A model generated the notes under the pieces. It did no database searches and had not been told where the DNA came from. It saw only the letters and a list, made by a program, of their open reading frames with translations. This document shows, piece after piece, positions 1 to 4,372 of a DNA stretch of 4,372 nucleotides. The stretch comes from a virus. Taxonomy: Duplodnaviria > Heunggongvirae > Uroviricota > Caudoviricetes. Each line of letters opens with the position of its first letter. Position 1 is the stretch's first letter. A program made the translations under genes and the position numbers. Location of the stretch: the IMG/VR virus record IMGVR_UViG_2778261571_000009, positions 1-4,372 of that record, one strand, 5' to 3'.

Positions 1-171
1 ATGTCACTTGCAACCACAGTGAAGGAGAGCAAGTTACAGAGACGCATGTACACGCAGAAAGCTCTCTGGTATCGCCATAATGGTGACCGCGAAGGAATGC
101 GGGTATGCCTTAATTTGTCCAGAGTCGAAGTATTAAACCAGCGTTATTTCCTTGGGCCATGTCCATTCTGA
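1..171 (+). CDS. small ORF (56 aa) directly upstream of erf; possibly an Arf-like accessory recombination protein; may extend upstream of the window
   Basis: ATG at position 1, in-frame TGA at 169-171 (MSLATTVKESKLQRRMYTQKALWYRHNGDREGMRVCLNLSRVEVLNQRYFLGPCPF). Below the size cutoff of the supplied ORF track. Position just 5' of erf matches where arf sits in P22-type left operons (recollection, not sequence-verified). Upstream context is not visible. Confidence 0.4.
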   Translation: MSLATTVKESKLQRRMYTQKALWYRHNGDREGMRVCLNLSRVEVLNQRYFLGPCPF

Positions 172-181
172 GAACAAACAT

Positions 182-787
182 ATGAGCAAAGAATTTTACG
201 CAAGACTGGCAGCTATTCAGGAGAATCTGAACGCGCCAAAAAATCAGTACAACTCATTCGGTAAATATAAATACAGAAGCTGCGAAGATATTCTTGAAGG
301 CGTTAAGCCGTTACTGAATGGTCTGTTTTTATCAATCAGCGATGAAGTTGTGTTGATTGGTGATCGGTATTACGTGAAAGCCACGGCAACTATTACCGAT
401 GGCGAAAACAGTCATACGGCAACCGCTCTTGCACGAGAGGAAGAAAGCAAGAAAGGAATGGATTCTGCACAAGTTACGGGAGCTACAAGCTCTTATGCAC
501 GCAAGTATTGCCTCAATGGTTTGTTCGGCATTGATGATGCGAAAGATGCAGATACAGACGAGCATAAACATCAGCAGAACGCAGCAGCAAAGCAATCAAA
601 ACCATCACCTACACCTGAACAGGTTCTAAAAGCATTCACTGACGCAGCATTGCAGAAAAACACCGTAGAAGAGCTTAAACAGGCGTTCGCCAAAGCGTGG
701 AAGATGCTCGAAGGCACACCGGAGCAGCACAAAGCGCAGGACGTTTACAACATCAGACGAGACGAATTAGAAGGAGCGGCTGCTTAA
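182..787 (+). CDS. erf: Erf-family single-strand annealing protein (essential recombination function), 201 aa
   Basis: ORF 152-787 on the track; I prefer the ATG at 182 (MSKEFYARLAAIQENLNAPKNQYNSFGKYKYRSCEDILEGVKPLL...), which matches my recollection of the P22 Erf N-terminus. The TTG at 152 would only add a 10-aa extension. Stop TAA 785-787. Confidence 0.85.
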   Translation: MSKEFYARLAAIQENLNAPKNQYNSFGKYKYRSCEDILEGVKPLLNGLFLSISDEVVLIGDRYYVKATATITDGENSHTATALAREEESKKGMDSAQVTGATSSYARKYCLNGLFGIDDAKDADTDEHKHQQNAAAKQSKPSPTPEQVLKAFTDAALQKNTVEELKQAFAKAWKMLEGTPEQHKAQDVYNIRRDELEGAAA

Positions 788-1170
788 TGGCACATTCGAT
801 TACTGTAAGACTAAACAAGCCCGCAAGAGAGTTTCAGGCCGGGGAAAATATCGGATTCAACATCCGTGCTGGAGTTCAGTATTACGATCGCCAGACAAAA
901 AAGAAAGAATGGACAAACTACAGCGCCGTTGTATTTGCCAAGCCGGGAGCGCAAGCGGATTACTACCGTAGTGTTCTTGTTGAAGGTGGCATTGTGGAAA
1001 TTACCGGAGAAAACATCAGGGTTGATGTTTATCAGGGGCAAAATGGTCAATCAATCACTCTTGAATTACTGAATGCAAAGATTGGATTTGCAGCTTCAGG
1101 AAATGGCCCGCAGCAGCAAAGTAGTAACCAGCAGAACACTCCTGTATACGACGATTCCATCCCATTCTGA
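787..1170 (+). CDS. ssb: short phage SSB-like single-stranded DNA-binding protein (127 aa) with acidic C-terminal tail ...YDDSIPF
   Basis: ATG at 787-789 overlaps the erf stop (TAATG), with AGGAG at 772-776. The translation ends in DDSIPF, close to the canonical bacterial SSB tail (DDDIPF) that recruits host replication and repair proteins. The central EW...VVFAK...VEGG.VEI.G pattern fits an OB fold. The track start at 697 is an in-frame extension through the erf 3' end and is unlikely. Confidence 0.75.
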   Translation: MAHSITVRLNKPAREFQAGENIGFNIRAGVQYYDRQTKKKEWTNYSAVVFAKPGAQADYYRSVLVEGGIVEITGENIRVDVYQGQNGQSITLELLNAKIGFAASGNGPQQQSSNQQNTPVYDDSIPF

Positions 1171-1193
1171 TTTAGAAAAATAAGGATTTAATT

Positions 1194-1490
1194 ATGCCAG
1201 CGCCTCTGTATGGTGCGGATGACGCGCGCCGCTGTTCCGGCAATTCCGTATCGGAGGTGCTGGATAAATTCAGAAAAAACTACGATCGAATAATGTCTCT
1301 ACCGCAGGAAACGAAAGAGGAAAAGGAATTTCGCCACTGTATATGGCTTGCAGAGAAAGAAGAACGCGAGCGAATTTACCAGACATCAATCCGACCATTC
1401 CGCAAAGCCACATATACCCAATTCCCTGAATATATCGACCCGCGCCTGCGTAATTACCGCTCACGCTATGGCGCTATCAGTAATGACTGA
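1194..1490 (+). CDS. hypothetical protein (98 aa), lambdoid early-left small protein
   Basis: ORF on track. AAGGA at 1182-1186, 7 nt before ATG 1194. Stop TGA 1488-1490. Co-directional and tightly packed with neighbours. No family recognised. Confidence 0.6.
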
Positions 1491-1500
1491 GGAATTTACC

Positions 1501-1668
1501 ATGAGAGGACTTGCATACAATCCCGGCATTCTTCCGGCAGAAATGATTATTCGCCAACGCGTAAAGCCAATGCCATCGAGAGAGGAATTGCTTAAGAGAA
1601 AGAGTTTCGGTTCTGTTAATGACAACAAATATCTGAATGCGATGTTGCGCAAAGGAGGCAACCGGTGA
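1501..1668 (+). CDS. hypothetical small protein (55 aa)
   Basis: GAGGAA at 1489-1494, 6 nt before ATG 1501 ([15 protein letters not shown]...). The track lists a longer 1348-1668 ORF, but its 5' part overlaps the previous gene in another frame and lacks an RBS. Stop TGA 1666-1668. Confidence 0.55.
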
Positions 1669-1748
1669 CTGGACATGCAGCGATCCTCGACATGTGCTGT
1701 GGCAGCCGCATGTTCTGGTTAGATAAGAATGACGAACGGGCGAGATAA
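1665..1748 (+). pseudogene. 27-codon remnant resembling the N-terminus of a class I SAM-dependent (DNA?) methyltransferase; probably a truncated gene
   Basis: Strong AGGAGG at 1653-1658, 6 nt before GTG 1665 (overlapping the upstream stop as GTGA). Translation [27 protein letters not shown] then TAA at 1746-1748. 'ILDMCCGS' resembles SAM-binding motif I (hh-D-x-x-x-G-x-G region) at the start of methyltransferases. The ORF ends after 27 codons just before the next gene. Confidence 0.35.
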
Positions 1749-1798
1749 GCGATCGGTTAAGTGCTATAGTAATGCGCTTTTGTATTTATGGAGTGAAT

Positions 1799-2497
1799 AT
1801 GAAAAATATCCTACTGGCATCATTGTTAGTGGCATCGCCGGGTGCATTTGCAGCCAGCTTTGACTGCCAAAAGGCTTCGACAGCAATCGAACATAAAATC
1901 TGCGATAACGAACGTCTGTCAAAATTAGACGAACAGCTTAGCTCTGCCTATTCTAGTGCCCTCAAAGAAAACCCAGAGAACGCAGACACCATAAAAATGG
2001 TTCAACGTCAGTGGGTAAATATGCGTGGAAAACTCACTGATAATAAGGCTCTGGAGCTGGCTTATCTTATCCAAATTAATGGCCTCAAAGGTTTGGGGAG
2101 TTCAGTCAGCGTAACAGCGGCCAATGAGATACCCACGTCGACGCAGAAACATTCTGAAGAGCAGGAAGAAACAAGTAAGGCAGAAGTTAAGTCGGTCAAG
2201 AACGGCAATAAGCTAACCTTAGAGTCATTCCGAGCTAAATATGTAGAAGTAGATGGTGAGTATTACAGCACGACATCCATTCCTAGAGGCAGTTCGTTCT
2301 TGTTCACTTGCGCCAGTCGTATTGCTGATGACCAAGTGAATGTTTGGAAGAAACATGCAGCCAAAGAGGGCAAAATCGACCTATTCTTTGAGGTTGAGAA
2401 TCACTTACACACTGCTATGTTGAACGCCAATTTCCAGAAGTTGAATTCAGACCCTGCCAAAAGAGGTATTTGTAATCTGATTAACGCAGTGCCGTAA
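1799..2497 (+). CDS. secreted (Sec signal peptide) protein with N-terminal DUF1311/LprI-like domain, 232 aa; candidate moron
   Basis: GGAG at 1790-1793, 5 nt before ATG 1799. N-terminus MKNILLASLLVASPGAFA/AS has a basic n-region, hydrophobic core and AxA cleavage motif. The mature N-terminus SFDCQKASTAIEHKICDNERLSKLDEQLSSAY...QRQWVNMR matches the DUF1311 (LprI/YecT-like) pattern sFDC.kA.t..E..IC.d..L..LD..L...Y...QR.W as I remember it. Followed by a hairpin terminator. The track start at 1772 lacks an RBS. Confidence 0.75.
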   Translation: MKNILLASLLVASPGAFAASFDCQKASTAIEHKICDNERLSKLDEQLSSAYSSALKENPENADTIKMVQRQWVNMRGKLTDNKALELAYLIQINGLKGLGSSVSVTAANEIPTSTQKHSEEQEETSKAEVKSVKNGNKLTLESFRAKYVEVDGEYYSTTSIPRGSSFLFTCASRIADDQVNVWKKHAAKEGKIDLFFEVENHLHTAMLNANFQKLNSDPAKRGICNLINAVP

Positions 2498-2507
2498 GTA
2501 AATTTAG

Positions 2508-2537
2508 GGCCACAGTTGTGGCCTTAAATATTTTTTC
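2508..2537 (+). terminator. putative intrinsic terminator after the DUF1311-like gene
   Basis: GGCCAC (2508-2513) / GTGGCC (2518-2523) stem with loop AGTT, followed by TTAAATATTTTTTC containing a T6 run (2531-2536). The T-tract is 7 nt from the stem, so efficiency is uncertain. Confidence 0.5.
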
Positions 2538-2555
2538 AGCCTTTTCTTATTTGTA

Positions 2556-2580
2556 ATAAGCAGTACTTAGTAGTGCTTAT
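2556..2580. promoter_or_regulatory. imperfect 25-bp palindrome in an AT-rich intergenic region upstream of the TGT-like gene; possible operator or regulatory hairpin
   Basis: ATAAGCAGTACTTAGTAGTGCTTAT has perfect 7-bp outer arms ATAAGCA/TGCTTAT and a partly symmetric core. It lies in the roughly 200-bp visibly AT-rich gap 2498-2703. No convincing sigma70 -35/-10 pair could be assigned by eye. Confidence 0.25.
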
Positions 2581-2703
2581 AAAACAGAATAAAAAACATA
2601 TGACTTTGGCGATTACCCAGTAAAGATATTCGAAATAAATGTAAATATCGGCAATGAATAACAATCCTCGCACTCGCGGGGATTTCTTTTATATGGGGAT
2701 AAT

Positions 2704-3504
2704 ATGACCATCCACTTTCACGGCAGCCCAATATGGGGGGATGAGCATGCCCCTACAGATATGCTGATTAAAGCCCTTTACCGTGATGGTGGGGCTTTTG
2801 TTTCATTTGCCAGACCAGAGCAGATGAAAAAGATTGCCATGTTCCCTTGTGATATACGCCTTGATAACGGCGCTTTTAGCGACTGGATGAAAGCATTAAA
2901 GAAAGGCACTCCGGTAGACTGGAGTAAGAGGCGAGCAAAATTCTACGACTTTGTTGGGAAGTGGTTCAGCAGAATTGAATGGTTTCTTATACCTGACGTT
3001 ATCGAAGGGACAGAGGCAGAAAACGACGAGCAGATTGAGTTGGTTCCTGATTGGCTAAAATCAAAAGCGGTTCCGGTCTGGCATACCGACGAATCAATTG
3101 AACGTCTTTTACGCCTTTCTGGCAAATTTGAATGGGTGGCGATTGGATGCTGCGGCCCACACAGGCACATACGCTCTAAATGGTGGGAACAGAGAATGGA
3201 TGAAGTTTTCACTGAGCTTTATATCAATCGTAATTTGAAAGTGAAAATTCATGGTCTTCGAATGCTCGACGTGAGAGTTCTTGGTATGTATCCGTTCGCC
3301 AGTGCGGATTCTACTAATGTTGCTGTTAACGTACCGAAGACAGAGAAGCGATTTCCTGAGATTACTGACAAACTGGCACGTACAGCTGTACTTCGCGCTG
3401 CTATTGAAAAGGTGCACCCGCCATCGATATCAGCATGGGTAGACAGAAAGATGAGAGAGCCGGCGCAAGCCGGTTTTTTATTTGAATTCACCGACGCCGC
3501 TTAA
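2704..3504 (+). CDS. TGT-like (tRNA-guanine transglycosylase fold) protein, 266 aa, lacking the C-terminal zinc subdomain; candidate DpdA-like DNA 7-deazaguanine transglycosylase
   Basis: GGGG at 2695-2698 before ATG 2704. Colinear motif matches to TGT as I remember it: FVSFARPEQ (TGT FHLWLRPGQ), IRLDNGAFS (ILTDSGGFQ), WFLIPDVIEG (IVMIFDEC), FEWVAIGCCG (FDGYAVGGL), MYPFASADSTNV (DMFDCVMPTR). There is no CxCxxC...H cluster after the last motif. Confidence is for the gene being real; the functional call is inference (about 0.5). Confidence 0.7.
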   Translation: MTIHFHGSPIWGDEHAPTDMLIKALYRDGGAFVSFARPEQMKKIAMFPCDIRLDNGAFSDWMKALKKGTPVDWSKRRAKFYDFVGKWFSRIEWFLIPDVIEGTEAENDEQIELVPDWLKSKAVPVWHTDESIERLLRLSGKFEWVAIGCCGPHRHIRSKWWEQRMDEVFTELYINRNLKVKIHGLRMLDVRVLGMYPFASADSTNVAVNVPKTEKRFPEITDKLARTAVLRAAIEKVHPPSISAWVDRKMREPAQAGFLFEFTDAA

Positions 3505-3522
3505 TGCGGATTTCTTTTATCT

Positions 3523-3549
3523 GAACTCGCTACGGCGAGTTTTGTTTTA
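3523..3549 (+). terminator. putative intrinsic terminator after the TGT-like gene
   Basis: Stem ACTCGC (3525-3530) / GCGAGT (3535-3540), loop TACG, extendable by A3524-T3541, followed by TTTGTTTTA. A weaker CCGC/GCGG hairpin spans the stop codon at 3497-3509. Confidence 0.55.
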
Positions 3550-3561
3550 TGGAGATGATAA

Positions 3562-3729
3562 ATGCACTTCCGAGTAACAGGTGAATGGAATGGAGAACCA
3601 TTCAACAGAGTTATCGAAGCAGAGAACATCAACGACTGCTATGACCACTGGATGCTGTGGGCGCAGATGGCACATGCAGACGTAACCAATATTCGAATTG
3701 AAGAACTGAAAGAACACCAAGCCGCCTGA
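3562..3729 (+). CDS. hypothetical small protein (55 aa)
   Basis: GGAG at 3551-3554, 7 nt before ATG 3562. MHFRVTGEWNGEPFNRVIEAENINDCYDHWMLWAQMAHADVTNIRIEELKEHQAA, stop TGA 3727-3729 inside the loop of the following terminator. Not on the ORF track because of size. No family recognised. Confidence 0.5.
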   Translation: MHFRVTGEWNGEPFNRVIEAENINDCYDHWMLWAQMAHADVTNIRIEELKEHQAA

Positions 3730-3742
3730 TGGCGGTTTTTTT
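3719..3742 (+). terminator. intrinsic (rho-independent) terminator
   Basis: AAGCCGCC (3719-3726) pairs with GGCGGTTT (3731-3738): five G-C pairs, one G-U and two A-U. Loop TGAT, then a T-run through 3742 (GGCGGTTTTTTT). Confidence 0.7.
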
Positions 3743-3756
3743 ATTGGAGACAAGAA

Positions 3757-4101
3757 ATGTCAGATTTGGCTATGAAGGTTTTGAAATGGCAATCGACTGG
3801 CGATGTCGGCATCAGTAGCGCAACTCTTGCCTCAATCGCATGTGGACTGAAAAAGAATATCTATGGTCATCACTTCGGCGCTCCACATGACGTAGCCGAT
3901 TTCCGGCGATGCGTTGCACTTGTTGAGCAGATTCCAGAAATCAGAGATTCATTCGACAAGGTTGCAAAGCGCGTTCCGGCATTCAAAGGAATCCTCAACG
4001 AATGGGATTCCCTCGTTGCTCTGTTGAAGTCTGAAATGAAGACGTACGGGAACAAAGCACCAGAGACTTACAGAAGAATCAGCGAGCTACGCAAGGACTA
4101 A
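3757..4101 (+). CDS. hypothetical protein (114 aa)
   Basis: GGAGA at 3746-3750, 6 nt before ATG 3757. ORF on track. Contains a His-rich segment GHHFGAPHD. No family recognised. Stop TAA 4099-4101. Confidence 0.65.
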   Translation: MSDLAMKVLKWQSTGDVGISSATLASIACGLKKNIYGHHFGAPHDVADFRRCVALVEQIPEIRDSFDKVAKRVPAFKGILNEWDSLVALLKSEMKTYGNKAPETYRRISELRKD

Positions 4102-4140
4102 CCCGCCTCACACTCGATGAGGCCTGTTCATATCTGATAG

Positions 4141-4166
4141 AGCCGCAGTATGGCGGTTTATTTTTG
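4141..4166 (+). terminator. possible weak intrinsic terminator upstream of the AlpA/Xis-like gene
   Basis: GCCGC (4142-4146) / GCGGT (4153-4157) stem with one G-U, loop AGTATG, followed by TTTATTTTTG. A separate 6-bp hairpin GCCTCA/TGAGGC at 4105-4123 has no U-tract. Confidence 0.35.
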
Positions 4167-4180
4167 CCTGGAGAATTAAG

Positions 4181-4372
4181 ATGACCGATACCAGCCTGAT
4201 TCCTGAGAAAGAAGTGATGAACAAGCTCGGTGTTTCATCACGTCAGACAATCTGGAACTATACCAAACGGCACGGATTTCCGAAGCCAGTCAGAACCCAC
4301 CCCAAATCATACCTTCGTGAAGCTGTTGAAGGGTGGATTCTTAACGGTGGCGTTAATCAGAAATGCTCCTGA
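4181..4372 (+). CDS. AlpA-family helix-turn-helix DNA-binding protein; putative prophage excisionase (Xis) or regulator, 63 aa
   Basis: GGAGA at 4170-4174 before ATG 4181. ...EVMNKLGVSSRQTIWNYTKRHGFPKPVRTHPKSYLREAVEGWI... matches the AlpA/Xis-type pattern (L.s.stiy.....g.FPkPv.....s..W...ev..W). Location at the 3' end of the left arm is where xis sits just before int. Confidence 0.8.
   Translation: MTDTSLIPEKEVMNKLGVSSRQTIWNYTKRHGFPKPVRTHPKSYLREAVEGWILNGGVNQKCS

Follow-up and report, generated by a model that had tools for sequence, protein, structure and literature searches.

A stand-alone, Zn-less DpdA homolog in the early-left operon of a lambdoid prophage and its probable role in low-density 7-deazaguanine modification of DNA

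The window, i.e. the whole stretch of 4,372 nucleotides analysed here (positions 1 to 4,372 of the IMG/VR record IMGVR_UViG_2778261571_000009), resembles the DNA of lambdoid phages and prophages. Its best phage match is HK106, in the part of the PL operon lying between the recombination genes and xis/int. The window sequence contains a dpdA-like open reading frame at 2704-3504 on the + strand, which starts with ATG, encodes 266 amino acids and is located between abc2/DUF2737 and an AlpA/Xis-like gene. The ORFs around it match Erf, an SSB-like protein, the anti-RecBCD protein Abc2, DUF2737, an LprI-like secreted protein, two small phage ORFs and an AlpA/Xis-like protein. The same order was found in a near-identical E. 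coli prophage: repressor, N, Ral, Erf, Abc2, DUF2737, LprI, the dpdA ORF, a small ORF and TorI. The early-left placement proposed in the original prediction is thus confirmed by the neighbours, by the HK106 layout and by the gene order of the E. coli prophage.

The dpdA-like gene belongs to a module shared with HK106. According to blastn, window positions 2657-3741 correspond to HK106 7530-8614 with 98.2% identity, which gives a common block of 1,085 bp. Homology between the window and HK106 ends at 1649 and restarts at 2657, 47 bp ahead of the dpdA start. The 5' end of this mosaic module (2657-2703, + strand) carries a hairpin followed by a T-run (2663-2684) and then a GGGGA ribosome-binding site. 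Downstream of dpdA, still inside the HK106-homologous block, the hairpin search found a terminator-like structure at 3523-3542 (+). It is followed by a 55-aa ORF at 3562-3729 (+), which belongs to phrog_676, is similar to lambda p35 and accompanies dpdA in HK106. HK106 has the same module, including the upstream hairpin and the 55-aa ORF, and there too it is located in the PL operon, upstream of xis/int. The genes preceding the module are different: gp33, gp32, a DUF4752 gene and gp30 in HK106, a methyltransferase stub and the LprI-like gene in the window. Beyond the 55-aa ORF, another conserved small phage ORF of 114 aa (phrog_1229) lies at 3757-4101 (+).

The stub is a 27-codon ORF at 1665-1748 (+) corresponding to the N-terminus of class-I SAM DNA methyltransferases, which are intact in related temperate phages and 73-88% identical to it. 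Its start overlaps the DUF2737 stop codon, and phage ev099 has an identical one. The LprI-like secreted protein is encoded at 1799-2497 (+) and was identified by Pfam PF07007 (8e-5) and phrog_4675 (6.8e-95); PGAP names the product 'lysozyme inhibitor LprI family'. This gene has its own strong terminator at 2502-2529 and an AT-rich tail at 2498-2656 (GC 0.34). As it is absent from HK106, it can be regarded as a separate moron-type insertion, and since HK106 homology resumes only at 2657, the stub and the AT-rich tract go with this insertion and not with dpdA. Judged from these homology boundaries, the stub, the LprI-like gene, its terminator and the AT-rich tract are one insertion separate from the dpdA module, and it was probably the LprI-like insertion that truncated the methyltransferase. 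The decayed methyltransferase start reported beside dpdA is therefore real, but it abuts the LprI-like gene instead of dpdA. The proposal built on it, that one anti-restriction strategy replaced another at this locus, is not supported, because the genes in front of the same dpdA module are entirely different in HK106. Displacement of the methyltransferase by dpdA was rejected on the same grounds.

The tract of low GC content (0.335-0.35 at 2401-2700 as against ~0.45 elsewhere) had been taken as the gene's own upstream region, and a terminator had also been assigned to dpdA. The tract and the terminator-like hairpins at 2663-2684 and 3523-3542 do exist, but the AT-rich sequence at 2498-2656 belongs to the LprI-like insertion. 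Terminator-like hairpins are enriched in the window as a whole, 13 being found against 3.7 +/- 1.9 expected, and they occur in nearly every intergenic gap of the + strand. Hairpins of this kind on the + strand are located at 2502, 2663, 3523, 3719 and 4140. No sigma70-like promoter was found directly upstream of dpdA; the single promoter-like site is inside the LprI-like gene. This pattern fits transcription from PL by N-modified polymerase, in which case each accessory gene would depend on N antitermination. It offers no support for dpdA expression in a repressed lysogen, as far as hairpins and promoter-like sites can indicate.

Five TGT-type motifs had been recognised in the product, and all of them are found at colinear positions of the 266-aa ORF: RPEQ (37-40), LDNGAF (53-58), IPD (96-98), VAIGCCG (145-151) and FASADS (198-203). 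The RPxQ motif is specific to the stand-alone clade to which the window DpdA belongs. Across 68 aligned homologs, the most distant at ~45% identity, residues D54, A57, P97, D98, G102, N107, P124, W126, H127, H183, P197, D202, R226 and E235 are invariant (68/68). The aspartates of LDNGAF (D54) and ASADS (D202), whose conservation the original prediction had proposed to examine, are thus retained in every sequence. Conservation across the 68 homologs means that the motif resemblances are not due to chance.

Comparison with the near-identical E. coli and HK106 copies gave a dN/dS of ~0.08, calculated from few substitutions. Orthologs at 85% identity or less gave no usable ratio because dS was saturated; dN was 0.10 against the ortholog at 85% amino acid identity. 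Purifying selection acts on the dpdA-like gene, which is intact. Within the final 50 nt of the ORF there is a hairpin with an 11-bp stem followed by T6 (3454-3479, +), which encodes the low-confidence C-terminal tail REPAQAGFLF. The last 12 residues (QAGFLFEFTDAA) are identical in the 85%-identical relative.

The family of the window protein was established by profile search. It belongs to phrog_887 with E = 1.4e-102; the same profile scores the validated DpdA of phage 9g at 6.9e-98 and also matches the DpdAs of phages 7-11, MED16 and SfI. Alignment of the window family profile to 9g DpdA by hhalign gave a probability of 95.5% and E = 1.3e-8 over 153 columns, and the two proteins are related in BLASTP at E = 6e-5. 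The residues common to both are L53-D54-x-G56-A57-F58, G102, N107, P124, H127, G148, H183-G184, P197 and D202-S203. The AlphaFold2 model, built on the 68-sequence alignment, has pLDDT 93.6 and pTM 0.89 and shows eight beta-strands alternating with helices. When the viral structure library BFVD was searched, 27 matches were obtained at E <= 1e-3, and all that bear a name are annotated as queuine/queuosine tRNA-ribosyltransferase; unrelated folds start only at ~8e-3. The profile membership, the hhalign result, the model and the BFVD matches bear out the originally suggested DpdA-type barrel of the TGT superfamily.

Several searches were negative. Foldseek of the model against the PDB gave no distinction between TGT and other TIM barrels. 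The window ORF had no match in Pfam, NCBIfam or PADLOC, a Pfam scan of the 68 homologs gave no TGT match (PF01702 was not among the families matched), and phmmer and the family HMM found only chance matches among PDB sequences. The Pfam and PDB negatives carry no weight, as the validated 9g DpdA is equally undetected: it has no Pfam match, and its search against PDB sequences returns chance matches only. No match was obtained by hhalign of the family profile to E. coli Tgt, which was represented by one single sequence and not by a TGT profile.

The conserved histidine that sets DpdA/DpdA1 apart from DpdA2 (Hutinet et al. 2019, PMC6884629) is found in the window protein as H127, invariant in 68/68 homologs and aligned with the CFH histidine of 9g DpdA. 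The absence of preQ0 pathway genes, which characterises the stand-alone 'group 3', was observed as well, partly via HK106, as the window covers 4.4 kb. On profile, motif and gene-content evidence, the window ORF is a stand-alone DpdA of gamma-proteobacterial phages, i.e. a member of group 3 of Hutinet 2019 and of the 'DpdA/TGT_1' cluster of the MED16 paper. The product can be described as a Zn-less (beta/alpha)8 homolog of DNA-guanine transglycosylases.

The active site can be proposed by comparison with bDpdA of the S. Montevideo Dpd restriction-modification system (PDB 7UI4). In bDpdA, Asp95, located before the beta3/alpha3 insertion, is the general acid/base, and Asp256, which opens the beta8/alpha8 insertion, is the nucleophile; the base is read by Asp130 and His181, while Phe99 and Leu236 stack on it. 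Substitutions D95A and D256A abolish activity. In the window protein, the proposed general acid/base equivalent to Asp95 is D54 (codon 2863-2865, +), the last residue of beta3, aligned to LDSGAF of 9g; F58, at +4 from it, is the proposed equivalent of Phe99. The proposed nucleophile equivalent to Asp256 is D202 (codon 3307-3309, +), the last residue of beta8, aligned to YSCDSS of 9g. Base recognition is attributed to H127 in VWH (codon 3082-3084, +), the last residue of beta5, as the counterpart of His181, and to D98 in IPD (codon 2995-2997, +), just after beta4, as the counterpart of Asp130. The register of D98 against 9g DpdA is the least certain of all, the 9g aspartate being three residues later. 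In the AF2 model, D54, D98, H127 and D202 are placed at or just past the C-termini of beta-strands, and H183-G184-L185 is at the end of beta7. The three active-site aspartates assigned to acid/base catalysis, base recognition and nucleophilic attack are thus all among the invariant positions. The match of these four residues to the catalytic residues of bDpdA is proposed from topology and from the alignment with 9g.

In bDpdA and TGTs, a CxCx2Cx22H Zn site pins the large beta8/alpha8 insertion. As noted originally, the Zn-binding subdomain is absent from the window protein: CxCxxC is missing, and its only cysteines are C49, C149 and C150. Between beta8 and alpha8 there are ~20 residues without a CxCx2C...H motif. 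Since CxCxxC is also missing from the active 9g DpdA, lack of the Zn motif is not unusual. Judging by these sequences, the absence of the subdomain characterises phage DpdA1-type enzymes and does not set this gene apart from them, and the Zn site marks TGT and bDpdA.

The gene is already known through its ortholog. The window DpdA is 98.9% identical to HK106 gp29 (YP_007151699) over all 266 residues, and Supplementary Data 1 of Hutinet et al. 2019 (PMC6884629) lists HK106 YP_007151699 under DpdA, next to phage SfI, with no other pathway gene. The HK106 ortholog was therefore catalogued as a singleton DpdA in 2019. A full-text literature search for DpdA together with HK106 returned no paper, HK106 appearing only in the supplementary table. 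According to Hutinet 2019, singleton DpdAs of gamma-proteobacterial phages form a cluster of their own, for which functional divergence is possible, and the MED16 paper assigns the MED16 protein to it as well.

The DpdAs of phages 7-11 and MED16 are 57.8% and 42.8% identical to the window protein, respectively, belong to phrog_887 and are likewise unaccompanied by phage pathway genes; the hosts of these phages are also enterobacteria making preQ0. Unlike the window, which is part of a temperate lambdoid prophage, these phages have no integrase annotated near dpdA, and the authors of the MED16 paper found no integration genes. DpdA1 of 9g and CAjan also falls into phrog_887, and 9g DpdA shares with the window protein LDxGAF, the histidine, HG and xDS. 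It differs in its identity of ~22% and its length of 317 aa, with extensions at both the N- and C-termini. Moreover, the 9g gene lies inside a folE-queD-queE-(gat-)queC cluster, and its product modifies 25-32% of G. The bacterial enzyme bDpdA is more distant: it is 14% identical, has 413 aa against 266 aa, contains Ins1-3 and an Ins8 of 128 residues in the place of the ~20-residue segment, and needs the ATPase DpdB. No DpdB or DpdC neighbour was found in the window, where phage recombination and xis genes surround the ORF. The tRNA TGTs (bacterial TGT and ArcTGT; PF01702) differ from the window protein in having the Zn subdomain, a beta-sheet lid at the N-terminus and the tRNA-binding C-terminal domains.

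As stated in the original prediction, the window contains no folE, queD, queE or queC; tblastn of the 4.4-kb window revealed no homolog of these genes, of VUT or of Dam (all E > 0.07). No FolE, QueD, QueE, QueC or amidotransferase is annotated in 12.6 kb of HK106 around dpdA. Furthermore, 80 IMG/VR loci with dpdA homologs at 35-100% identity were scanned locally, and tblastn with the 9g proteins FolE, QueD, QueE as well as Gat-QueC and with QueD of DMCA found none of them in the 80 loci with flanks of up to 10 kb. As pathway genes are missing, a host precursor pool would have to be used. This agrees with the earlier claim of dependence on the host and with the explanation already put forward for the stand-alone group, namely that phages without pathway genes rely on host preQ0 or uptake (Hutinet 2019, PMC6884629).

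In 20 of the 80 loci, a YhhQ/VUT-type gene is located on the same strand as dpdA at a distance of 0-679 bp, in both gene orders. It is upstream of dpdA in closer relatives, including 6/6 loci at 59-85% identity, and downstream in most relatives at 36-40%. The loci with this cassette lie within L022-L027, L062 and L071-L091 of the IMG/VR set. Pfam Vut_1 was confirmed for one of the dpdA-adjacent genes (4.7e-10). YhhQ is described as a preQ0 transporter. In Hutinet 2019 (PMC6884629), YhhQ was not correlated with any phage group, so the close DpdA-YhhQ association in the stand-alone clade may be previously undescribed. Another linkage is to Dam: an ortholog with 76% identity forms an in-frame fusion with a Dam DNA adenine methyltransferase domain (460 aa, PF05869 4.3e-58; L011-L013, 5540-7383). 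The fusion gene occupies the equivalent early-left position in another prophage, integrated next to fliE, and the gene ahead of it, which overlaps it, is of the Vut_1 (YhhQ-like) type. A DpdA homolog of 32% identity comes directly after a QueD-like gene in Caulobacter phage DMCA. These gene associations support a 7-deazaguanine precursor as the substrate and DNA as the target. No VUT or Dam remnant is present in the window, and the E. coli/HK106 dpdA clade has neither a VUT gene nor its remnant; this clade would therefore depend on the host's own pathway and transporter.

Modification has been measured in several relatives. Phage 7-11 virion DNA contains 50 dADG per 10^6 nt, i.e. 0.02% of G. 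In virion DNA of MED16, 354 dADG per 10^6 nt (0.13% of G) were found together with traces of dPreQ0, and the DNA was cut by the G-containing restriction enzymes tested. The group 3 phage Orion, whose host makes no preQ0, shows no modification. When 9g DpdA was the only phage gene supplied in E. coli, plasmid DNA acquired 790 dPreQ0 per 10^6 nt from the host pool (Hutinet 2019, PMC6884629). CAjan deprived of queC or folE continues to modify its DNA with preQ0 from the host, but the level falls 12-fold and protection is lost. The trace dADG of 7-11 and MED16, the cleavage of MED16 DNA and the drop in CAjan point to sparse modification and not to a restriction shield.

The window protein is most likely a DNA-guanine transglycosylase by which preQ0 from the host is inserted at low density, as dPreQ0 and/or dADG. 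Of the preQ0/preQ1-type bases named in the original prediction, a preQ0-derived product (dPreQ0 or dADG) would be expected and a preQ1-type one would not. During lytic growth or induction, dpdA would be transcribed from PL by N-antiterminated RNA polymerase. The base donor would be preQ0 produced by host FolE-QueD-QueE-QueC or imported by host YhhQ. By homology, D202 would attack C1' of the target deoxyguanosine to give a covalent intermediate of enzyme and DNA, D54 would act as the general acid/base, D98 and H127 would read the base, and F58 and L185 would stack on it. Judging from relatives, the 7-deazaguanine base would be put in after replication at tens of sites per genome, yielding dPreQ0 and/or dADG.

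Several points speak against low-density preQ0 insertion. DpdA1 of phiSM was inactive in E. coli, and Orion is unmodified, albeit on a host that lacks preQ0. The ATPase requirement of bDpdA has no evident counterpart in the window, where no partner for the enzyme was found. No DpdC-like enzyme that would account for the dADG is known in stand-alone DpdA phages. Attribution of the dADG of 7-11 and MED16 to their DpdAs is putative.

The original prediction, read as true anti-restriction hypermodification, would mean that a large fraction of G is replaced by preQ0/preQ1-type bases as a shield against Type II/IV restriction. Replacement of 25-32% with restriction resistance is indeed achieved by DpdA1 of 9g, CAjan and Rosebush, and in a related prophage Ral and other anti-host functions are encoded in the same PL operon as dpdA. 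However, all highly modified phages have a preQ0 pathway of their own, which is the case neither for the window nor for the 80 related loci. CAjan left with host preQ0 is unprotected, and the closest measured relatives carry only the trace dADG given above, with cleavable DNA in MED16. Evasion of restriction by hypermodification is thus not supported and is considered unlikely.

Still less probable is a diverged or repurposed barrel, which would be either an inactive relic or a protein benefiting the lysogen, for example by removing 7-deazaguanines from superinfecting Queuovirinae DNA or by sequestering preQ0. The functional divergence raised for singleton clusters in Hutinet 2019 (PMC6884629), the location of the gene among mosaic accessory genes beside a moron and the modification levels of relatives, too low to protect, are compatible with it. 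In addition, glycosylases targeting 7-deazaguanine DNA are a known type of defence, and a few E. coli copies of the gene are split into two ORFs. The invariant catalytic residues and the low dN/dS argue against a relic. Expression in a repressed lysogen is not expected for a gene that has terminator-like hairpins on either side and lacks a promoter-like site immediately upstream, and phages without signs of lysogeny, with no integrase annotated nearby (e.g. 7-11, MED16, Rogunavirinae), commonly carry homologs; a defence role in the lysogen was therefore given low weight. The linkage to a precursor importer is in keeping with base insertion but not with base removal. Action of a TGT-like enzyme on RNA, for example to re-tune the queuosine status of host tRNA in infection, is highly improbable, as the name 'queuine tRNA-ribosyltransferase' on phrog_887 and on the RefSeq record is inherited from the superfamily whose fold the protein has, phrog_887 also holds the DNA-modifying 9g DpdA, neither the Zn subdomain nor the C-terminal domains found in tRNA TGTs are present, one ortholog forms a fusion with a DNA adenine methyltransferase, and 7-deazaguanines are present in 7-11 and MED16 DNA.

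The low-density insertion of host-derived preQ0 can be extended to a more specific, rather doubtful proposal: that the minimal Zn-less DpdA of temperate lambdoid phages might write a sparse, sequence-specific 7-deazaguanine mark (dPreQ0/dADG at tens of sites per genome) from a scavenged host or imported precursor, instead of serving bulk anti-restriction. Candidate roles of such a mark would be evasion of a single defence system, signalling in self/non-self distinction or in packaging, and regulation. If this were true, the recurrent DpdA-YhhQ cassette, together with the fusion of DpdA to Dam, would represent a phage epigenetic module with two marks. What lone DpdAs do is asked both in Hutinet 2019 and in the MED16 paper. 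HK106 as a culturable lambdoid phage and the E. coli genomes carrying the gene, with a tractable host that makes preQ0, provide a convenient system for studying this role.

The dpdA ORF was found in 82 of 5,426 complete E. coli genomes (1.5%), always on the chromosome. All 82 copies are annotated by PGAP as 'hypothetical protein', and their annotation as DpdA-type would be a possible improvement. In Salmonella phage 7-11 (L003, 6001-6729), the tblastn match begins 24 nt upstream of the annotated start of gp032, and the start codon annotated for the deposited 7-11 DpdA may be too late.
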